Assembly (NCBI GenBank): GCA_013265495.1
Contig: MU057640.1
Span: 443,303 to 507,302 of the forward strand
DNA: 64,000 nucleotides
Direction: 5' to 3'
DNA from: Vicugna vicugna
Lineage: Eukaryota
Made by a program: the position numbers and the translations under genes. The number at the start of each line of letters is the position of its first letter. Positions within the stretch are counted from its first letter, which is position 1. Below the pieces are notes generated by a model. The model ran no database searches. It was not told where the DNA came from and saw only the letters and a list, made by a program, of their open reading frames with translations. This document shows positions 486 through 57,745 of this stretch, piece after piece.

Positions 486-1885
486 GCATATATTTATGAT
501 GGGTAATTTTTTTTTAAAACAAGAGACATGTTATATATTTAGAAAGATAAGGCCAGTTCTGTGGGTTAAGTTTTGGCTGAAAATAACAGCACTGCTGACA
601 CCAATAGCAATCACCATTTTAATTTAATCAGTCTGGATGTTTCCAGTGCTAAAAGACCACTGTTTTCTACAGGGTGCTGTGTCTTCACAATGATGTTCCA
701 GGAGTGGTTCTATTACATAAAAATTAACTTGACCGCAGAGGGTGAGCTGGCTGCAAGGACAGCCTTCCCTGGGCCCTCCTGCCCTTTGGGACGGCACATG
801 GCCACCACTCCCCTGGTGGGGCTGCAGGAGCTGGAGCTGGAGCCACTACCTGCCACCTTCCATCAGTGCCCGGCAGAAGTCTGGCGGATCCCAGAGGGGA
901 GGACAGAGGAGGAGAAAGCAAGTAGCAGGCTATGTTGTGTTCACTTGAGGACGTGGGACAAGGCCTGCCCATGCCTGCACCTTTGCTCTTTGCCCCAGAT
1001 TGTAGACTGAGCCTCGTGGCTGTGGAAAAACTGCCTGGTCTTTCAGAGTTTCATTTTTTCTTTCCAGTGCAGCAAAATTCTTTTGAATGCGCCTGTGTAG
1101 ATGTTGTGATTGTGAACAGTGATCTTGTTATTAGTTCCTTAAAGCCTGGGACTAGGTCTCCAGTACCCGCACCCAGTAACCCAAAGGAATGCCTTTCACT
1201 GACATCGACCCCTAGAGCTTCATGGCTAGATAGCACGGAAAGTAGGCATTTAGGAACTATTTTTCCTTCTTCCTTTGCATTCCTCTGTGCATGATAAAAT
1301 GTGTGATTCATACACCTTTTCCTTCATCCTTATTCTTCCTAATTCTATTTAAGAAGTGATTTCCTTCTGCCCAGTTAAGTAAAGCTGATAGGACCTTAAC
1401 ACACAGCCCTCTTCTGTTTGCATTTCTGAGAACTGGCGAAATCTGTGCTCTGCTTGTTCTGCTTTAATGAGGGAGAGATTGACCAGCTCGGGAGGAAAGC
1501 GTCTCTGTGTCCTGGGAGCCGCTTCTCACTCCTCCCTTCTTCTATTAGGGCTGTAGAGTCTTCTGAGGTCCCTGGACAGTGTCAGTTTCCCAGATCTAGA
1601 TAAGACAAGGGCTGGAGCTCCTAGTGGGTTCCCAGGCATCGGATAGGAGGATGTCCTTTGGAGAAAAGGAAAAAAGTCCGCCTAGATGGAATGATAAAAG
1701 GAATGACATCACAGAAAGCATGGCAACCAAAGGGCCATCACAGTCTCCCCACGAGGTGGTCAGAACCCCAAGGGAAGACCTGGTTTCATTGTTTCCTGCT
1801 GGGGCCGGCAGGAGCAGGGGGGCATGGAGGAGGGATTGCTTACCCAATGGCTAGAACAGGCCAGAGGTTTTGCTTTTCACTCCAG

Positions 1886-2214
1886 ATCTGCCTCGCTGCT
1901 CCGATGGTCTCTCTGGAGTGGTGTGGTGCCACCTCAAAGCATTTTCATCCTGTTGATTTATTATCCAGGGTTGCCCTGGGAGTTTGGCGGGAGAAGGGGA
2001 GCAAAAAGAGAGGGAAGTACATCATTGGAGAGGGAAGTAGAGAGAAGAAATTATCATCGGGGAGTTCTGTGGAATCCCGGAGCCCCACCTCCAGGTTCTG
2101 CTCCCTGGAGGCTCTGAGCTCTCTGATAAAAGCCGGATCCATCTCCTGTCCCTCACTTGGTTTCTTCAAGCCTAGACGACTGCAGCTGACGGTGCTGAGC
2201 TGGGTGTCAACCAT
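1886..2214 (+). other. Candidate alternative upstream/cassette exon of DPF3
   Basis: Acceptor-like ttttgcttttcactccag ends at 1885; strong donor CCAT|gtaagt at 2215. ORF 1658-2218 stays open to the donor, and its last codon AT|G is in the phase required by exon 2. Inference only; no transcript evidence. Confidence 0.45.
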
Positions 2215-2844
2215 GTAAGTTCTGCTGATTTCAAAGTCACTTGTGTTGAAAACCCAGAGAGATTGAGAGCAACTGCCCAAGGCACTGTGTGGACAGAAAG
2301 CGGCTATCCATGCGGTGAATGCTGACACTCAAACGGCCTGGAATGCTGTCTTGTGAGGTCGGCTTGAACACAGTGCAGGGGTTGTAGGTGTTGAATACAG
2401 GGCAGGAACCGGGAGGTTGCCATTCTGGGGCTTGTGGGTAGCTTGGGCCCAGAAATCATTTCTCCTTTCTGTCTTTGTTGGGTAACTATGCCCAGGTCCT
2501 GCCTGGTTGCTGTCTCTCTGTAGGTCCTATCACGGTTGCTTGTCGCCCTGTCACCGTTGCATGTTGGGGTCTTAGAAGTGAGGCAGCCTGACCAGGGTGT
2601 GCGCAGCCATCATCACAAAGTTCCCACATCATCTCTACTCATCAGCAGAGCCAACCACCCCCAAGCTGTGGACCTTTTAAGACATTTAGGAGTCCTTTGA
2701 GAAGCATGATCTTTGGTGTCTTTAATTAGAATATCTGGAGTTTTGGCTTGTTCAGTCAGAATATCGGGGCGAGCTGGAGAAATTGCTTACCCAGCTCCTT
2801 TTGGCTATGGGTAACTTTGTAAAGTGAGTGTACTGTCTAAAATT

Positions 2845-3984: not shown

Positions 3985-4800
3985 GGGTCACTTAAAACCA
4001 GGCTGAGGTCTCTCCTTCTTAGGCCACTCCTCAGTGTTCTTGGGGGTCCCCTCTTCCTTGTCTACCCTTAACAGTTTTGTCCCCCAGAGTTTTTGTTCTT
4101 TGTCCCCCTGATTCTTGTTTTGCTCTGTTTCTCTCCGGTTGACTTTATCCACACCCATGACATCCATGACCATATAATATATATTGCTCATTACTCTCAA
4201 ATGCATATATCCAACCTGGACTTCTCTGGAGCTCCATATTTACAGATCCAGGTGGAACCTCAGTATATACAGAACTTACTAGCCTCCTCCACCAACCTTC
4301 TCCTGGATTCCCCATCCAGATGACCAGAAGCATCATCTGCCAAGTCAGCCAAGCTGGAAGTCATCTTGGACTCCTTATTCTCTGTCTCAGGACATCTGCC
4401 CTCTTCCTGCCAAGGACTGTCTGTCTGCTCTCCTTAGTAGCCCTCTCCAGTTTGTCCTCAGTTCTTCACTCCCGCTCTGACTGAGTTAGTTTCAGGTCTT
4501 TGTCATTCTAACTAGACTCCCTAATTGTAAGTTCCCTCCATCCACATATCCTCTGCCAGAATGATCCAATTATGTTTCTCCCATCTTAATACCCATCAGT
4601 GATTCCTTGTTGCCCAAAGGATAAACACTAATTCCTTTTGTCCAGCATACAGGCCCTCCTGAATCTGACCTCTACCTATCTTTCCAGCCTCATGTTCTTC
4701 TTCTCATTCTGCCTTCAGCCCTTTAGCCATAAGGAATTCCTTGAAGTTTCTTGAACGGGTTGCATTTTTTCAAACCTCCATGCCTTGAACGCCATGCTAT
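3985..4800 (+). mobile_element. L2 fragment
   Basis: Degenerate L2 motifs (ttatccacacccatgac, actctcaaatgcatatatccaacctggacttctct, gaagtcatcttggactcct). Boundaries approximate. Confidence 0.6.
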
Positions 4801-7420: not shown

Positions 7421-8099
7421 ATTTTATCTGAAGGATTATCTTAATCTTAAAATTGTATTATTCTGACTTTTGGGATTTGTATTAAATGTCCTTTCTTTTA
7501 AGAAACAATGTAGTAGACAGCAGTTGGGTTATAGGATGTCCTTCTCTGGCAAAATAAAAAAAAGTTGGCAAGACTATGGGGATCCCTCTGATGTTTGTTG
7601 TTGTTAAAAGCTTCCTGGACTGTAAAAATCAAATATCTAAGAATTACTTGAACTAGGTATTATTTAAAAAATACTGTTTGTTAAGGATTAAAGAAGGAAA
7701 TAGTCTCATGCATAATTAAGGCAATGCCTAATGTGCCCCTGGAGCTCCTGGGGTTTGATTTAATACCACTTAGTGCCTAGTACTGTGCCAGGCAAAGGAA
7801 TTTTGCCTTGATGGGCTTGTGATCTCTGCAGGAGAATTCCGTAGGGAACCTGCAGAAAACAGGCAGGAAGCAAGGAAATAGGCTGGCAGATGATGGCTAA
7901 GTTTAGTTGGTTGAAGCTAACATGGCAAACCAAGAGGTTTCCACCAGAATTTTAGATTCCTGGCTTGGGTCTACTATCAAGTAATTTATGTGACCTTAGG
8001 CAAAGCACTTAATTTCTCTGCCTCTTGCTTTCTTGTTAGTTTCCTGTCTTGGATGAGGGCCCCCTCCAGCTCATGTGAGACAGCTGTCTCTGGCACCCC

Positions 8100-11100: not shown

Positions 11101-13092
11101 CAGTGCCCACGGCTTGCCACAGACCAGGGCTGGCAGCCCCAGTCCAAAGCCACTTCTCCCTTCAGCCAGGGTGGCTCCAAATCCATCTCAGACAACACCG
11201 AATAATCCCAGGAATTTTTTCCAGGCGTCTGACCCTGGGGCAAGGCTCAGGGCAGACATTCCTTTCCTTCAGACTTTACTAGGGCCCCATGTTGCTGGAT
11301 TCTTCTCTTTGGAGGGTATGTAGGACAAACTCAAGGATGCCCTGGAGTTGTTGAAGGAGTGGGTAAGCTCCCTGCCCTAGATCCATCAGTTTCCATAAGA
11401 TGTTTCTTTGCCTGTCCCCAGCCGATCTCACTGCCAGGACAAGCATCACCCTCTTCCAAGGCTTTGCTCATGCTGTTCCCTCTCTAGAAAGGCCTTCCTC
11501 TCATTTCTGTTTGTCCAAATGCATTCACCCTTCCCCAGAGGCCCAGACTCCTTCTGTAAGGAAATACACCTTTTTCTGAGCTCCCAAATCATATCCCCTG
11601 CTCAGGGCAGGGTTGGAGACTGGCCTCTTCCACGTCAGGGGCATGCCACAGGATGAAGGAGAGAATGGAGCTTCCTACTATCCCAGTTTTATTACAAACA
11701 AGTATCCAGGGTCAATGTGTCTTTAACGCATTAAAGAAAATCTTGCAACCCCCCTGATTGTTCATGTTCTCAAGGTAACTGCTTAGTTACCTTTCAGAGA
11801 GTGGGAGGAAGCCAAGAAAGAGAATTCTTAATCTTAGGGAGCAGGACTGAGTGCAGAAATGTCTTGGAAATGGAAGATTCCCTTGGCTCCCTGCTCCAGC
11901 AGCACTGCAGCCCATATATAACTGTGGGCGAGCTCCCCCTCTCCGAGTCGCTTATCTCTGCCTCACATTCACAGACTCACCAGCCTGGAGTCTCCCTGGA
12001 TTTTGGCCAAGCCAGTTGGGAATGCATAATAGCCGAGATACGGGATGGGGTGAGCCCGCCATGTCCTTGCACGCCAAGGTGAAGGTCTTCCCTCTCCCCT
12101 TCCCCACTTCTAACCTTTTCTCTGGCATTGGGATCTAATCTTTGTGGTCCCACCTCTCTCATCTTTGAAAGGAGCGATTCAGATTCCACATTTGCTGGTG
12201 GCTGTGCTAGTAATTATGGACACCCCTTGGAGAATGGGAGGGAGGCTCAGGTGAGCCAGTTGGGACCAAATGGCATTTAGCTAGCTACCATTTTGAAATC
12301 TCAGCTAAAAGGCCTTGTGAGTTTACAACCTTCTCTGTAAAATCTCCCGCAGTTCACTCGCTGTTTGGTTTTGCTTGAGTGTCCTTGTTTTGCTTTTTGT
12401 CCTGGCAGAAATAGGGACGAGAAAAGGAAAGGCCCCTGGAAAGAAGATTCTAGCCTGATGGGAGAAGGGCTGCTGGGAATGGGGGAGGGGTCCTGGAGCC
12501 TACACTAGAGGTAGAGGTGTAGGGGAGGCAGATGGTGTGGGATCCTGCTGTTAGTGTTCCTGCTTTGGGAGTGGCTCTGTTTTGGGGTGCACTGGACGCA
12601 GTGGTTGATAGAACTTACAGAACAGTTGTGGAAGCTACAGCTTCCTTGTTGAAGATGTCTTGGACGCTATTAGAAAGGATAGCTTCCATCCCATAGACAA
12701 AAGCTGAGTCACTAGCTAGAGTTACCAGGGGTTTTCTGGTATGTTCTTTACTTCCAGTGCCTTTAACTTAACACCGTGGGATTTGGGACAATGAGTTCTC
12801 TTTAGGTGAGTGGGGCAGTATCAACGCATGGGATTGTAACCAAGTCAGATGCCTTTGTCTGTTGTTGGAGGTGTTTATATTAAGTGTGTGAGTGAGGGAG
12901 GGGGGAAGGAGAGAGGGAGAAAAAGAGAGAGAGAATGTGAAGCGTTTACCCTAAAGCTACAGGTGTGGGAGTGGGGTAAAGTGATGGGTTGGTTGGTTAT
13001 AGGACAAGATGCTGTTGATGTTTGTTTCTAGGATGGTTTGATCTGTGTGAACCTTATGATTTTTTGTTTGATTTCATGTTAATATTCCTCCC

Positions 13093-24235: not shown

Positions 24236-24984
24236 TGGAGGGGAGCAGAAACTTGCCACCCCCAAAGATGTCTCTCTGGCATATTAATTATTTTAACCTG
24301 GCTATTTTCCAAGAAACATCCAACAGGGAAAAAAATCCTGAAAACCAGGTAGAAGTTACCATTTTCTAAGAAACATTTACATGTATGAGGGGAATCTCCA
24401 TTTGTAAGGGTGTCTCCCTTGCTGTACCAGAAAGTTGACCAGATCTCTAGAAACAGCATCTATAGAGAAGGCAATGACTTCAATCTGCATAACAACCTTA
24501 CCCTTTTTCACTGTGCGTTTCCTGGTCACCTCCCATAGCTGACACTCCACCACTCCACACCCCCTCCCCCCCACCACNNNNNNNNNNNNNNNNNNNNNNN
24601 NNNNNNNNNNNNNNNNNNNNNNNNNNNNNNNNNNNNNNNNNNNNNNNNNNNNNNNNNNNNNNNNNNNNNNNNNNNNNNNNNNNNNNNNNNNNNNNNNNNN
24701 NNNNNNNNNNNNNNNNNNNNNNNNNNNNNNNNNACCACCCCGGCGGCCCTCCCCACACCCCCCCAAACCCCAACATTCTCTTTTGTCTTTAGCTGAGAAT
24801 GCTAATTAAGGTGAGGACTTCCGTCCTTTTGGAGAGGTACTCAGTTTTCCTGCATTTCTCCCATGTATACATGTTATTAAATTTCTGTTTGATTTTCTCC
24901 AATTTTTCTGTCTCAGGTCAAGGTAATTCTTAGATCAGTCAGAAGAGTTTAGAAGGGAAGAGGAAAATTTCTTCCTCCCTGACT
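24236..24984 (+). mobile_element. ERV1 LTR (MER34/MER39-like) spanning an assembly gap
   Basis: Start tggaggggagcagaaacttgccacccccaaagatgtctctctggcat; end ttagaagggaagaggaaaatttcttcctccctgac; internal ggaatctccatttgtaagggtgtctccc. Confidence 0.7.
24578..24733. other. Assembly gap (156 N)
   Basis: Run of N flanked by C-rich sequence on both sides. Confidence 0.99.
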
Positions 24985-27900
24985 TGGACTTGCATCTGGG
25001 TTGGGAGAGGGTGGCTGTGTGACCCGTGCTGACCTGCTGGCTTCTGACCCTTCCCTTATGTCCCCATGTCCCTCCCCGGCTCCACTCTGCCCCAAGGCCC
25101 CTGGTGGAGGGACCAGGTCTTGGGTCATCAGGCAGTAGTCGGGCGGGGCTGGGCAGGCCTGAACTGTGTTTGGTGATGATGTTAAAGTTTCCAGTGACTG
25201 AAAGGGAGTGAATCTTCTGGAGGGAGCCCTGGCAGAAGCGTGGGGTTCACCTGGAGGGCCTCCGTGTAGTCACACATCCTGTTCTTTGCTCTGTCTTTCT
25301 CTGCATGCGTCAATCTTCCTCAATGGTCTTTACTCTCTCCTGTATCCACAGTTCCCACCCTCTAATCAGGAAAGAAACACCACTACCAAAGAACTCCCCC
25401 AAACAAACAAAAAACCCCCAAACCAAAACCCAGTACATTCCAGCAACTTAAGGAAAATTTGAAGAAAGAAGCGCTGTTGTCCTGTTTACTAAGTGGGCGA
25501 AAGTTACTTAATCATCCATAAGCTTTAAGTTCTATCCTGTGGAGCCCCTGCCCCGTCTCTTTTTCTGAGATGCACAAGCACATCATACAGAGGGTAGTCT
25601 TCATAGGCTCTGAGGACTGCAGGGGACATCGGAACTAGAATGTAAGCCCCACGAAGGCAGGAACCTGTGTATCCCCAGTGTCTAGAAGGTGTCTGACATG
25701 TAGTAGGTGCTCAGCGAACCCTTTTTGACTGCATGAGTATTAGAGCTAAAAGGCACTGCCAAGTTAAGCTTGTCCAGAAGGATCAGATGAACAAACAGAG
25801 GCTCCGAGAGATGAAATTGCTTGCCTGAGATTGCACAGCAAACTGGTGGTATGGCTGGGGCTGGACCCCAAATCAACCGGGCTTTTCCCAAACTCCCAAG
25901 AATATCAGACGCAAGTCGTGGCTTCTGTAACGTACATTCTTAAGCCCTGAGACGCCTGGCAGGTTCCCTGGTGAAAGAAGCTGTTCAGACCCCCTTCTCA
26001 TTCCGGGTCCAAGATTTCAGAGGTCCGGATAGAAGCAACAGGCTTCTGGGAGGGTTGTTCCCAGCTCCCAGAGTAGAGGGCATCTCTGAAAATGCTCGCT
26101 TGGATTTCTAGGCTGACATTCTAAACACTACCTCATCCTAAAAGTAAATGGTGAACTATTTTCACACTCTATTAAAATTTTAATTTGGAAAACTCTTGTC
26201 CTTGGAATGTGAAATTCACCAGGCACTTTATATCCTGCGGGCAGAGCTCGTTACTGGAACCTTCTTGCCAGTCCCACTTGTGAGCCCTACTTGTGGAGAA
26301 GGACCAGTGGGATCTGACCAGCATAGTGACTTTTACTGTTTGAGTTCAAAATGTCTTGTTTGTTTAAAAATGTTCACTCGGTTCAGGGTTCTTCTCCCCT
26401 CCGCCCCCAACACACACACACTCCTCCTTCACAAGCAGGGCACTTGGACTCTACAGTGGTGGTGGGGGGCGATATGTGAAAAATTAAAATGATTACTGTG
26501 AGCATCAATCTGATAGTCCTAATTTCACCTCATTTCTGTGGCCCTCCAACCTGACTCTTACTCCATTTCTGATCTCCCCCTTCCAGACCTTCCGGCCATC
26601 TTTGATCCTCCTCTTTCCCTAATTCTCTCTCTGTTCTAGACCTTTACCCCAGTCCTAACCCCCACTGCATCCCTCACCCCATCTCTGAGCTTATCTTTTC
26701 CCATCCCTGAGGTCAGGGTAGGGTGACCTCAGGGAGGGAGGGAGATTATCTGGTTTTCGCATTACCTGGTGTTTTTTAAAAGCTGAAAGTTTAGTGGTTT
26801 GTTTTTTAGATATTGTTAAAGGGCCCTTCTGTCAAAGCTAGCCAAGTCAAAGGGCAGTATCAAAGTTATGCTGGAGTCAATATCATGCCCCAACCTGTCA
26901 GTAATACAAATAATAAAGTATGTATTAAACCTTCGTTACGTATTCAGGACAGCACTAGGCACTTTCTCTAGTGCTATTTTGTTCAAATCCTTAGCAGTCC
27001 TAAGAATCAGGTATTTTAATCCTGATTTCATTGATGGGAAAACAGGTACAAACATCTTCAGGAGGTAGCGCACAAGCATACAGTAAATAAGAAGAGCAAT
27101 TACAGAATTACTAGGTGACACTTGAGTCCTGAATGGGTGAAGTGTCTGCTTCAAGGTCCCCCTTGTGGTTGTCCAACTGATAAGCCTGCTTCGATATCTT
27201 AGCGTGGTGTGATGGCTGCCCCTGAAATGCCCAAGACAGAGAAAATTCTCCTCCTTGACCCTGTGGATAGGTGGGCAAGCACTCCCTCGGGCCATGCTAG
27301 AAATACACCTGGGAACAGTTTTCCAAAGGGACAGACCATCCTGAGGAATGGTGGAGAGATGAGATTTGGCGCTGAGTTTCTCCCTGATCTTGCTGCATTT
27401 TAACAAATATTTAAACACTGGGCAGTATGGGGACTAAAAAGAGACCAGTCTGTTCCCTGCCCTCCGGGAGCTGACCGCGTAGAGGAGCATGACGCAGTTA
27501 ACTCCGTGGTAAGGCACCCGGCAACGACATGCTGGGGGAGAGTGGCCCAGCACGCGGAGAATCTGGGGAGAGAGTGACTCACAAAGTCACACCACATTTC
27601 AGGAGTCATTTGGTGGGGCTTTCACTGGAGGTTTTCCACGCTTCCAGAATGGTGCTGATTGTAAGAACAGCCTCTCCTCTTTCCCAGTGAAAGAAGTTGT
27701 AACGATGGAAGATGCTTTCCCAAAGTTTGCAGGACTGAACTTTGTTATTGCGAGAGGTGATGAGGATGGAGATGCTTTGGGTCCTTTGAAGCCCTGAGCT
27801 GATGATGTAAGGTGAGTGTTGGAGCCAAGGTATGGAGAGGTGAGCCGAGGGGCAAGAACTGGGTCTTACTATTGCCCTATCCCAACCAGCTGGCCCCGGA

Positions 27901-28586: not shown

Positions 28587-30517
28587 TCAGGGCTGGTAGG
28601 GACTCTCACTTTGCATAGGAGGAAGCTCAGAGAACAAAAGTGACCACTTCTTTGTTGTTTCCCTCCCTTGCTAGCTTGATATCTCGCAGGTGGCAGAGGT
28701 GCAACGCCTGTTTATTGAATAAACCAAGGAAACACAGCTAGTTACGGCAGAGATGAGAATTCAGATATTCTGATTTTTTTGGGGGGGTCACAGTCTCTTC
28801 CATGACACTGCCCAGGGTTCTGTGTGTTTTGTGCCAATTTCCCTGGAAACTGGTTTCGTTGGAGTAGTGAAATGGCAACTCTTTATTAATGGGATGGATT
28901 CACTCAGTAGCATCAGATTCAACTATCTTTGAGGGCTTCCGCTATGTCATGCACTAGACTTGGAACTTTCTCATGCCCCGCTACTACTTCCTCTGCTTTC
29001 TGGCTCCTTACTGGAAACCACAACAACAACAGCAACAAACAAACAAACAAACGAAACCCCGACATCCCTACTCCTGCCCCGAATACTCTATCAGTTCCAA
29101 AGCAAGAAGGCCTTGTACTTAAATAATCACGTGGGGAAAAAAAAATCCTACCCTCAGATAAATGTGAAAGGATACTGGCGTGGGCAGTTTTCAGTCTTAT
29201 TTAAATTAGGGATTTTGGGGATTGTTGTTGTTTTGTTGTTGGTCTTGTGGGATGGTGTCCAGTGGTCCAGCATTCACGCAATGCCTTGTCTTCACTATCG
29301 CTTCTCCGAGGATAGTTATAGGTTGGCATAATGTACCTATTGTTCTGTTCCACAAAGCAGCACTGTCACAGAATGAGGGGGTGGGATGGGGGGATGCAGT
29401 GCGGATCAGGAAGGAGGATCTCTGTGAGTGTGTGAGTGTGTGTGTCCTGGACAGCCGTGCTGCATCTTGAATTATTTTTCCTATTCCATTCAGTGGGTCC
29501 CTCTCACCTGTGCCCTGTTTCCCCAGTTGTCCATCCCTCATTTTCCTCACCAAGTTCTCATTATACTTTTCCCTCCTGGGCTTATCACTAAATCCTGGCC
29601 CAAGTCTGAGGATTTCAGCCATAGAGGCTGAGTTAGGATGTTGAAGGAAGTGTTTTAAATTGTATAAGTGAAGTTATTTGCCTGAGATTGACAGGCTCAG
29701 GGGCTCACAGTATTGCTGATGACCTCAGAGGTCATCCAGGCCAACGCCTTTCACTGGACAGTTGAGTTGTTCAGAGCTCTTCCACCACAAAGCCCATGAT
29801 ACTTTCCGGGACACATTGGCTAACTCAGGCGTTCATCCACTCATCCAGCGTAAGCTCACTGAGTGCTTGCCGTGGACTAGACGATGGCTGTGTCATGATG
29901 AGAAAAAAAGGGCACCAATCCTACCCTCTGGGGCTTCCACTCCAGGTGCCCAGGTAGGCGGGTCCAACATCTGCAGGTATTGTGGGGCCCACTTGAGCCT
30001 ATGGAATCCAGGACTGAGTGACATGCTGGCCTTGTCTCTTGAAGCTGAAAATTAGGACCAGATCTTCACGGCCCATGTGCCAGCCATCACCAGCCAAGAC
30101 TTTTTTTTTTTTTTTTAAATAAATGAGAGTGAGATCTCTTAGACTGAGATCTCCCTTGGAGATTTTAATGGTAATACCTGTCTTACATTTCTCCCTCTCT
30201 CCCTCCTCCCCCTGTCACCAGACTCTTCTGCACAGGGCCGGTAGTTACGTGTAGGACTGTTTTGGACTCCAGCCATAAGCAGTGTTTTTGACTCAGCACC
30301 ATTGGCATCTGAATGGGTTGACTACCTATGTTACCGTGAGCCTACAGGCCATGGCCTTCATGGTTCACCCTGAAAGGGGCGAAGCCAGGGGACACAAGGG
30401 CCACTGGGCTGAGGTTCTGTCAACAGGCTTAGAAGGAGAGAAGAGCTTCTCTATCTTTGGAATGAACCTGTCTCAGTTTTGTCACCTTGAACGTTATACT
30501 AAAAATTTATGTTCTTT

Positions 30518-30758
30518 TTTTGGGGAGAGGAGGTAATTAGGTTTATTTATTTATTTATAATATTAAAAAATTGTTTTGGCTATTTTAGGTCATTTGAATT
30601 TCCATACGCATTTTTATTTATTTATTTATGAAATTTTTTTCCGGGGAGGATGTAAGTAGGCTTATTTATTTATTTATTTTTGGTGGAGGTACTGGGGATT
30701 TAACCCAGGACCTCATGCATGCTAAGCATGTGCTCTACCACTGAGCTATACCCTCCCC
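30518..30758 (-). mobile_element. Composite camelid SINE insertion (SINE + L1 fragment + second SINE tail)
   Basis: Full SINE at about 30611-30758, an L1-like piece at 30571-30608, and a second SINE tail at 30518-30558, all between imperfect 17-bp TSDs. Confidence 0.75.
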
Positions 30759-33029
30759 AACAAATGTTTGTTCTTTATTAAACACTCAGCTTTAACTGGG
30801 AGTCCTGATTTTACCTGGTGACCTTACAGGGCAGGGTGGATGGAAAGATGGGCAGTGGGCAGGGACCCTGTATCCCCACAGGGGTGATGGTGGCAGAATG
30901 TGGTTAGTGGAGCACTGAGGTCCTGAAGGATGATGTGACAATTCCTCATGAGAAGGGTAGCAAAGACACAGATCAGAAGACGAGAAATTGAGAATGTCTG
31001 CCGTTTGTGGTTTTTGGAGAAATCACCGTGGAGGAATTGCACTCACACGAGCCAAGAGAAAAGAATGATCTTTAGCCTTGCTTTTCACCCAGTTGTATCT
31101 GAAAGTACATTCTGTAAAAGAAACGAATGTATTCCCTTTGTGTATATTTAAAAAGAATCCAAATTCTTTCCTTCTGGTGAGTTAAAACAAACCCCCAGAG
31201 CTGAAAGTCAATGTACTCAGAGGCAATCAGGTGTCTCAGGCTGCTTGCGGGGGTGGGGGTGGGGCAAGTGCCTTGAGGTGTGTGCTGACATGAGAGGTCA
31301 GGGGCTCAGCACCTTTGCGCCCGCTCCCAGGAGTTAAGTCTGAACATTGATTTCTACATGACTCTCAGATGCATAGTGTATGAACACCGGGCATGTCCTT
31401 GGAGATCAGCCACCCTGAGAACCAGGAGCCCTCAGAACTGACCAGCAGTGAGGGGCCTCACTTTACAGATGGGGACACCGAAGCCCAGAAGACTTAGTGA
31501 TGAACTTCACGCCTAAAGCAGCAGAGCAGGATGAGATCCAGGTCCTGACTCCCAGGTTGTACGTGGTTTACCGTGACTGTATGCTCACCAGTCTTGTCGC
31601 CTTTCTCAAATACAAGCATGCTGAGGGCAGAGACCATGTGCCTTGTCAGTTTTGTAGTGTCCCAAGGCCAGTGACAGTCCTGCACACCAGCCGATCCCGT
31701 TAGCCGCAGGCAAAGAAACGTTTGCTGGCTGGTACCCCCCCTACTGCCGTTGATTGGTTTGCTCCTCAGCGAGAATTTATTTTCCATGGCTCATCTGATG
31801 CCTGTGATCCCTCCTCTCTGGGACTGAGTCTTCTTGAAGGTGGACGCCTGGCAGGGATGGTGTCCACCACCAAGGGTTATTCTCGAGGAAGCTAGTACTT
31901 CTTCCCCTTCAGCAGCGGCCCTTCTTTCTGTCCCTGGAGTAGTTGGGTGTGCAGCTCTGTTTTCTCCTACTGCTGGAAGCATTCATTCTCTGGCTGTAAG
32001 GAGAGATGAGGTGCAGAGCTCTCACATTTTGTGTTTGTGCCTCACCTTTGGGGTGGCTTACCTAGCATGACCAGCCTTGTCTGGGTGCACTGAGTCCAGG
32101 TGCTATTTTCCTGATCTGTCTCCACTGGACATCCCTATGCCGAGCCAAGAGACAGTTGAACCCACCTGGTTATGGGATCACTTGTCAGTAATCCCTGGAA
32201 AGATTCTCTTGCTCAGAACTCTGTGACGACTTTACAAAGGCAGTGAAAGGGGGAGTGTGATTTACAGGGGAGGGAATGGTGTAGAGCTTCCCAAGGGGTT
32301 GCCTGAGCTGTGCGCCCACGCCCACAGTGAACAGTTCACAGAGTGGTCTGTGCCAATCCCCAAGGTCATGGTGATGCCTTCAGCCAGGTGGCAGAGGAAC
32401 AGGCCTTGTCTTGGCTCTGAGCCTCATTTCTATAGCTGCTATCTTTCTGTTTTTCCCGTGATTCTTTGAGCCACTTAGTGTCCCTCCATGGCTGCCCTGG
32501 ACTCCTCATATCCTTGTTTCAATGCCAAGCCTTATGGATACATTTGCGGACATCTGCCTTCAGTGACTTCAGGTCCAGACACCAAAGCACAGCGCCTGCA
32601 TACCTACTAGCTCTTTCTGTCTCTGTGGCTGCTGCCCAGATCCGAGCAGATGCTAAGGATTGAGGAGGCTACTGCCTCAGGCCAGTTTTTCATGTGATGT
32701 AGCCACCGGTGAATGCCAGGAATGGTTTCTTCTTGTGATGCAGTATTGGTGGGATGATGTTAACCACCCTGGCTTGGGAGGGGGAGAATAACTGTAGGGT
32801 GAGTGCCACTCAGAGAGTTGTCCCCCAGTATTCCAAAGACCAAAGCCACATGGAAGTAAGCCTGTGGTTATTTCCTTTCCTGTATTATCAAGTGGTCCCT
32901 GACCGCAGTTTCCTGAGGGTATTAGCCTTCATGGTGTGCCTATTTGTATGTAGGCTCAGTTTGCAAATATGTAACCACTTGCCTGTTTTCCCATCCCCTT
33001 ATGCATCCATTAATTCATCCACTATTTTT

Positions 33030-48500: not shown

Positions 48501-49689
48501 CAGAGGATGTGTTCTTCGTGGCTGTGTTTTAAATGCCAGACCAGTATTCCCGTTACTTCGGAGGGCAGCACTGAGGCTCTTGGATTCCAGCAGCAAAGAT
48601 GGGATCTGAGGATGTGTTTGTCCAAGAATTGTCTCTAATCCACGAACTGCTTCTCCTGGCAGTCACACTCAGGGGACAGCATACTGGTGCCTAGCACGTA
48701 GCTGGGGTTTCAGAAAGGATTCAGTCCATGAACCGGGGAAACTAAAAATACTTTCTCAGTCAATGAAGTTTCTGTGATGGCTGTGTGATCTCTTTCGAGG
48801 TATGCTTTACCCTAGATAAAGCAGTCTTTTTTTTTTCTTTTTTCTTTTTTTCACTTTGGAAAGTTGGTTGCATACTACACATTCTTTAGCCTCCAGAGGA
48901 GAGATTTATTTTGTCATGTCTGGATGCCATTTGAAAGGCAAACCTTGGATACAAGAAAAGCTACAGTTTTCTTCCTCCCCAGAGCATCCCCCTTTCCTGA
49001 CACCACCCCCTCATTCTCCCATTATTTAGTGGAAGGACTCACACACTGCTTTTCTCCTGCCTGCAGTCTCCTGTCCTTGGCAGCCCCTTGACTTCAACCC
49101 CGAGTTGCGTATGTCATCAGAGCACCCTGTGGCAGCTCAGAAATCATGGCCGGGTTCAATATAAATTCCGTCTTGCTTAGGCAGCTTTGCATAATAAGTC
49201 CCTGAAAAGTCTTCACCAGAGTAGAGGCCGGAAAAGGGATTTATTGGGTCTTGCAGGTCTGAACATCAGACTGAGTGGCATTTCAAGTCATGATGGGAGT
49301 TTTCGGGTTCATATTCTTCATCTGATTTAGCTTTTGCAGGGTGACACTCTTGTCCCCAAGGTGCCTTTCCTGTGATGTTAGGAAGGTCAGGGTTGACTCC
49401 AGAGTGACTACTCTAAGGATGTCAGAATCTCATACCATAGCCTTGATCAGGCCTTGTGGATGTTTTGTGAGAAATGAGGACTTCTGTGAGACTCGTCTGC
49501 CACAGGTATGTGCTGCCAGGTTAATCTATGCCAGCTGCCTGAAAAAAATTTTCCCCCAGGAGCAAAACAAGCTGAGTTCAAGTCCATGAACCGAGCTTTG
49601 CTGCTCTGCTGTTAAAACATGGCAGAAGAGCACCACAGGGCTCTCTCGTTCTTGCCCTTGCCTCAGAGGTTGGGGGAGCTATCCTTCAA

Positions 49690-57584: not shown

Positions 57585-57745
57585 GCTCGGGGACCAGTTC
57601 TACAAGGAAGCCATTGAGCACTGTCGGAGTTACAACTCACGCCTGTGTGCAGAGCGCAGTGTGCGACTCCCGTTCCTAGACTCGCAGACTGGGGTAGCAC
57701 AGAACAATTGCTACATCTGGATGGAGAAGAGGCACCGAGGCCCAG
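57585..57745 (+). CDS. DPF3: DPF3 (BAF45c) coding exon 2, Requiem/DPF N-terminal domain
   Basis: Translates as (A)[53 protein letters not shown](G). [17 protein letters not shown] distinguishes DPF3 from DPF1 ([17 protein letters not shown]) and DPF2 (GEQYYKDAMEQCHNYNA), paralog sequences from recall. Acceptor is a polypyrimidine tract + cag ending at 57584; donor is CCAG|gtgagc at 57746. Length 161 bp, phase 2 start, phase 1 end. Confidence 0.97.

Follow-up and report, generated by a model that had tools for sequence, protein, structure and literature searches.

A possible minor first exon of DPF3 in intron 1 of Vicugna vicugna and a long open frame that very probably arose by accident

Introduction

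In the 64,000-nucleotide stretch of Vicugna vicugna DNA analyzed here (the window), a long open frame on the plus strand ends at a consensus 5' splice site upstream of coding exon 2 of DPF3, a gene for a BAF subunit. The last two bases before this site are AT and exon 2 begins with G, so a transcript spliced from one to the other would contain a start codon built across the junction (the slash in AT/GT marks the junction). Is this stretch an exon of DPF3 and, if so, would it give the protein a minimal start reading MLGDQ, a long N-terminal extension, or a poison exon that sends the transcript to decay? Alternative N-termini are common for DPF3 (129 of 281 fetched proteins). Work on mouse places a functional EBF2 enhancer 20 kb into intron 1 of the gene and mentions two known C-terminal variants of DPF3 (PMC5411707); another study treats DPF3 isoforms 2 and 4 only (PMC6862534). 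Among the titles and abstract openings that we searched, none dealt with an exon at 1658-2214, with a split start codon of DPF3 or with a DPF3 poison exon, although subscription papers or browser annotation may describe the exon.

Results

Exon 2 was recognized by its peptide: at E <= 1e-20 it matched 853 proteins, and among the 120 matches listed most carried the name DPF3 and showed 100% identity. No match to the peptide of canonical exon 1 occurred anywhere in the window, which places the candidate within DPF3 intron 1, 55 kb upstream of exon 2, with part of the intron extending beyond the window. The frame, its ATGs, the donor, the acceptor, the TGA and exon 2 on which the sequence-only reading was built were all recovered at the same positions when we checked the sequence (Table 1). 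An assembly gap of 156 N lies at 24578-24733.

Table 1. Features of the window that bear on the candidate exon
Feature	Position	Strand	Remarks
Possible orthologue of human alternative DPF3 5' exon, coding part	1581-1642	+	ungapped BLOSUM match
Stop-free frame	1625-2218	+	197 codons stop to stop; not conserved
Acceptor-like site, pyrimidine tract and CAG	1866-1885	+	CCAG ends at 1885
TGA	2115-2117	+	met if 1886-2214 (329 nt) follows a phase-2 exon; 97 nt before 2214
Candidate donor ACCAT/GTAAGT	2210-2220	+	start codon would arise from AT and the initial G of exon 2
DPF3 coding exon 2	57585-57745	+	161 nt, begins G, translates to DPF3 peptide
Exon 2 content	57585-57745	+	first part of DPF1-3 N-terminal / Requiem domain

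The frame runs for 186 codons from TTG 1658 to TAA 2218, or for 175 from ATG 1691, and contains in-frame ATGs at 1691, 1703, 1847, 1904 and 2213, the first two with G at -3. One point had been missed before: the donor at 2214/2215 itself supplies the stop codon of the frame (ATG TAA). That the frame ends at the donor is thus no separate coincidence, and only its length is unusual.

We collected 12 relatives of the frame, nine of them ORFs from ENA or Logan contigs (in a search of 1.84 billion representatives) and three from the clusters of these. They amount to about five sequence groups, including two near-duplicate pairs, and their similarity and collinearity suggest that they are translations of orthologous mammalian DNA. 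In a frameshift-aware alignment all 12 change frame inside the ORF of the window, at 44-69% identity of the pseudo-translation; by the same measure other intron stretches reach 44-70% and exon 2 100%. Ten extend past 1950, and each of these shifts frame or stops within 1904-2214, so the 104-codon extension from ATG 1904 proposed earlier does not stand as a conserved feature. Pfam gave no family for the long-frame ORF. Because of the frame shifts, the intron-like identity and the missing Pfam family, the long frame is no conserved coding exon, and as far as relatives at the protein level go it is very probably an accident of the lineage.

Other searches of this region came back empty. None of 772 candidate proteins of 327-2000 aa carries the frame, a blank that is weak evidence; Rfam has no family within 1200-2800, and the candidate holds no tandem repeats. 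The minus-strand frame 1948-2328, searched in order to read the donor through relatives, had no match among 8 candidates, and scans of metagenome contigs gave no pattern match and confirmed none of 36 stretches.

Within the candidate region, 1690-1790 is best preserved across the relatives and may be a regulatory element. An EBF-like motif lies at 1767, and 20 such motifs occur in the intron stretch.

As a measure of chance we simulated the 57.6-kb intron stretch 150 times with a Markov model. An AT/GT donor scoring at least 7 with a purine at -3 turned up in 137 of them, ATGTAAGT in 72 and an open plus-strand frame of at least 196 codons in 55. Any donor of at least 7 joined to a frame of at least 196 codons, in any phase, was found in 9 simulated introns and the full combination, an AT/GT donor ending a 196-codon frame, in a single one. 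The actual intron stretch holds 99 donor-like sites of at least 7, five of them AT/GT (the candidate and those at 8074, 25641, 27806 and 30651). The parts are commonplace; their combination is rare for one window and expected somewhere in a genome-wide scan.

The donor itself (CAT/GTAAGT at 2214/2215, with A three bases ahead of the AT) is a consensus 5' splice site in phase with exon 2. Scored with a splice matrix it takes rank 19 among the 3312 GTs that precede exon 2 and comes first among the AT/GT sites in 57 kb, and no GT between 1642 and 2215 scores above 4.9. Four of the 12 relatives (three distinct sequences, two groups) cross it, all four with compatible residues: the crossing frame reads Asn-His-Val-Ser in the window, His-Val-Ser in P0214 and P0223, and Tyr-Val-Ser in P0220 and P0224. 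The residues His/Tyr-Val-Ser require A at -2 and the GT and agree with the other bases, without specifying the T at -1. Val and Ser are among 8 invariant residues in 29 columns (p ~0.07, a protein-level proxy), which falls short of demonstrating constraint. Of the losses in related mammals that would count against the sequence-only reading, that of the frame is seen in all 12 relatives, and that of the donor in none of the four that cross it. A further relative, P0218, ends two codons before the AT, so its lineage would have a start consisting of a bare M.

A search of sequencing runs with 1850-2260 gave 19 matching entries among 24 rows in 8 studies, 7 of the entries being recorded as RNA; the RNA-type rows matched at most 0.41 of the 34 words, which fits a partial exon, a diverged relative, pre-mRNA or DNA alike. 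Near the candidate the motif scan detected neither a TATA box nor a CpG island, a result that is compatible with a tissue-specific promoter. A leader begun near 1550 would carry out-of-frame ATGs at 1651, 1686, 1720 and 1824 before the one at 2213, two of them in strong context; because of such ATGs in a long leader, efficient output would need a later start site or re-initiation.

Within the frame, the acceptor at 1885 ranks 75th of 1986 YAGs by a crude pyrimidine score, the acceptor of exon 2 ranking 54th. Its AG (1884-1885) is compatible in six of the ten relatives that cover it and lost in four, which belong to one group, so that the loss is possibly one event. Were 1886-2214 to follow a phase-2 exon, the TGA met would lie farther from the next junction than the 50-55 nt distance that matters for decay.

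Directly upstream of the candidate, the window resembles a human alternative exon. We take P0294 (BAH11762.1, Homo sapiens) to be the product of a full-length cDNA and a RefSeq variant that uses another 5' exon. When both strands of the window are considered, its N-terminus of 21 aa aligns best without gaps at 1581-1642 (BLOSUM 35, 7 identities, no gap). Shuffled P0294 peptides reached this score in 49 of 500 cases over the intron (p ~0.1) and in 1 of 500 within 1000-2300. Of 82 peptides, about 1.9 would be expected by chance to peak in the candidate region, and 2 did; against the relatives, the human peptide gave p 0.10-0.35. The window has no initial ATG here and reads AT, not GT, after 1642 (GG/ATAGG). 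Among the relatives, P0214 (Gly-Asn) and P0216 (Gly-Lys) are compatible with GT at this junction, and P0223 (Ser-Ile) and P0213 (Asp-Arg) are like the window. The match is suggestive, and we consider it rather probable that 1581-1642 is orthologous to the human alternative exon. If so, a human alternative promoter would lie just upstream, and 2215 would be the first strong donor after a lost one. A placement of the human N-terminus at about 2060-2130 was dropped, the best plus-strand score ending at 1627.

The protein that the split start codon would yield is annotated elsewhere. DPF3 proteins of 368 aa beginning MLGDQ are recorded for Macaca nemestrina and Colobus angolensis (P0122; XP_011760916.1 and others) and for Bos taurus, Bos javanicus and a goat UniRef entry (P0123; XP_059746914.1 and others), that is, in two mammalian orders (Old World monkeys; cattle/goat). 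The suggestion that such a start may already be annotated in other mammals was thus correct at the protein level, although the source exon there may use another AT/GT donor. The MLGDQ protein loses just its first 10 residues and retains the whole N-terminal domain (PF14051 scores 129.8 bits, against 129.7 in the canonical form). A minimal MLGDQ start is plausible.

Our fetched sample held 343 proteins, of which 281 have the exon 2 start of DPF3: 152 with the canonical N-terminus and 129 with another (104 distinct), a tally of a database sample that takes in birds, reptiles and ORFs reading through introns. None of the fetched N-termini maps to 1658-2214, the long-frame peptide is absent from these annotated DPF3 proteins, and none of the 91 distinct non-canonical N-termini of at least 8 aa matches 1500-2300 at E < 0.001. 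Five alternative N-termini end in Met, two of them being the bare M of MLGDQ. We tried to place the Met-ending N-termini on 2214 (hamster P0043, mole-rat P0079, the pangolin MM and the bare M) and could place none, the two long ones, P0043 and P0079, giving noise-level scores there.

Several N-termini map elsewhere in the window, which makes intron 1 rich in predicted first exons that are specific to lineages. These lie at 4.3-4.4 kb (bat/deer), 28.7-28.9 kb (cats), 32.6 kb (Molossus), 49.5 kb (camel/hamster), 52.8-53.1 kb (bovids/cervids) and 53.3-53.7 kb (pangolin/marmot). The match at 4320-4404 is to predicted first exons of bat (P0102, P0107) and deer (P0194); the stretch looks like an old L2-type repeat, and the matches may therefore be paralogous. 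A weak match to a predicted first exon of whale covers 12760-12806 and ends at a strong donor (12806). Predicted first exons of cat match 28685-28917, and that of Molossus 32574-32693. The mini-exon at 49474-49511 runs from an ATG to a donor of rank 10; its 49474-49506 agrees with the N-terminus of a Camelus ferus model in 11 of 11 residues, in keeping with a camelid origin of the DNA, and in part with a hamster model, and since the mini-exon is open in two distant lineages, a conserved coding first exon is more credible here than at the candidate. Between 52636 and 53681 lie three neighbouring stretches that resemble first exons predicted in a monkey, in bovids and cervids, and in pangolin and marmot; a promoter internal to the gene may be located here, 4-5 kb upstream of exon 2.

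A cluster of donors at 27790-27845 comprises ATG AT/GTAAGG at 27806/27807, then 27812, 27830 and 27840; the site at 27812, five bases past 27806/27807, is the top-scoring donor of the intron stretch. The site at 27806/27807 fits the MM-start isoform of pangolin and perhaps the MT start of pig and the MR start of bat, and because it reads ATG AT/GT and fits the pangolin isoform, it may be a competing origin of MLGDQ. Another ATGTAAGT, the second in the window, at 30610-30670, lies in an AT-rich tail that looks like a camelid SINE end and is therefore unlikely to be common to cattle or monkeys.

Discussion

The explanation that we tentatively prefer, at less than even confidence, is a minor and essentially non-coding alternative first exon in DPF3 intron 1 that ends at 2214 and whose product keeps the N-terminal domain. 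Transcription would begin somewhere between about 1500 and 2150, the transcript would extend as far as 2214, where the first strong donor lies, and splice to exon 2, and initiation at the codon joined from AT and G would give a DPF3 beginning MLGDQ; in effect, the gene would have a second promoter for a nearly identical BAF subunit. Such an exon may be indicated by the strongest AT/GT donor of the intron stretch, the residues kept in four of four crossing relatives, the MLGDQ isoforms and the human exon match upstream. Against it stand the comparable donors of 137 of the 150 simulations, the four other AT/GT donors of at least 7, the part of intron 1 beyond the window, the lack of a nearby TATA box or CpG island, the out-of-frame ATGs of a leader begun near 1550 and the modest human match. 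At best the stretch would be an unremarkable minor first exon, yielding a protein that databases already list for other mammals.

Somewhat doubtful, yet to be taken seriously, is the explanation that 2214 is a decoy, an unused consensus donor that ends a chance long frame in intron DNA, with MLGDQ coming from another exon. Every part is common by chance; the intron stretch has 99 donor-like sites; the identity of the relatives falls in the range of other intron stretches; annotated N-termini are absent from 1658-2214; and other AT/GT donors are present. Against a decoy stand the retention of the donor residues, the possible human alternative exon directly upstream, and a full combination that chance produced once in 150 simulations. 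The stretch 1886-2214 could instead be an internal leader exon, joined at 1885 to an upstream first exon (with the 1642-equivalent donor or one farther away) and, through the 2214 donor, to exon 2, a route that also yields MLGDQ. Its acceptor scores like that of exon 2, and P0214 and P0216, which have the GT-compatible 1642 site, also retain the AG, but the window lacks a GT after 1642 and, in a very small sample, the AG is lost in four of ten relatives, including P0223 with its 2214 donor residues, and we regard such a leader as unlikely. The poison exon of the sequence-only reading, in which 1886-2214 would be spliced in after canonical exon 1 and before exon 2 in a regulated manner and lead to nonsense-mediated decay, has fitting geometry (good acceptor, good donor, frameshift, and a stop 97 nt before the junction). 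Almost any 329-nt piece of intron between AG and GT would probably hold such a stop, however; conservation of 1886-2214 does not exceed that of other intron stretches, and four relatives lack the acceptor, which leaves this a weak reading with a very small chance of being right. A single paper was found that mentions both 'DPF3' and 'poison exon', and its subject is BRD9 (PMC8947417).

A camelid-specific coding first exon, started at ATG 1691, 1703, 1847 or 1904 and adding 104-175 residues, would use the 196 open codons before the donor, which chance gave AT/GT donors in 1 of 150 simulations, and the G at -3 of ATG 1691 and 1703. It is very unlikely in view of the frame shifts in every relative, the lack of a domain, the competing out-of-frame ATGs at 1651, 1720 and 1824 and two camel DPF3 entries that begin canonically or at 49474, to which the blank among 772 candidate proteins adds weakly. 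In one version, camelids lost an old first-exon donor (GT to AT after 1642), transcripts read on to 2214, and a 175-residue extension from ATG 1691 was newly born; this is scarcely probable, and if true would be de novo coding sequence born from the turnover of a splice donor in a BAF subunit. Only a camelid-specific extension, unlikely as it is, would draw the attention of those who study how exons arise de novo or how BAF is assembled. The minor first exon that we prefer would add one more internal promoter to DPF3, with a near-normal product and an unchanged mechanism, and would matter for annotation and for interpreting regulatory variants in intron 1.

Several known systems can be set beside this preferred first exon. 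The MLGDQ isoforms are exactly the protein predicted from an AT/G start at exon 2, with the domain intact, but they are mostly predicted (XP_) models. The human P0294 isoform likewise joins a phase-2 exon to exon 2, and its match is found 570-630 nt before the candidate donor; it differs in being coding and in ending at the 1642-equivalent site, and both its ATG and its GT are missing from the window. Human 5' variants of DPF3 may be described in Lange et al. 2008. The predicted first exons of other lineages are, like the candidate, weakly conserved, of phase 2, spliced to exon 2 and open in some lineages, but each brings its own ATG, whereas the candidate would build one across the junction. 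The poison exon of BRD9, shown experimentally in SF3B1-mutant melanoma (PMC8947417), also concerns a BAF-family subunit and is the model for the poison exon of the sequence-only reading, but nothing comparable was found for DPF3. Finally, Dpf1 and Dpf3 are reported to have N-terminally altered isoforms from alternative promoters (PMC11678306), so that alternative 5' ends are documented in d4-family genes; in those isoforms the 2/3 (Requiem) domain is truncated, whereas the MLGDQ start would leave the domain whole.
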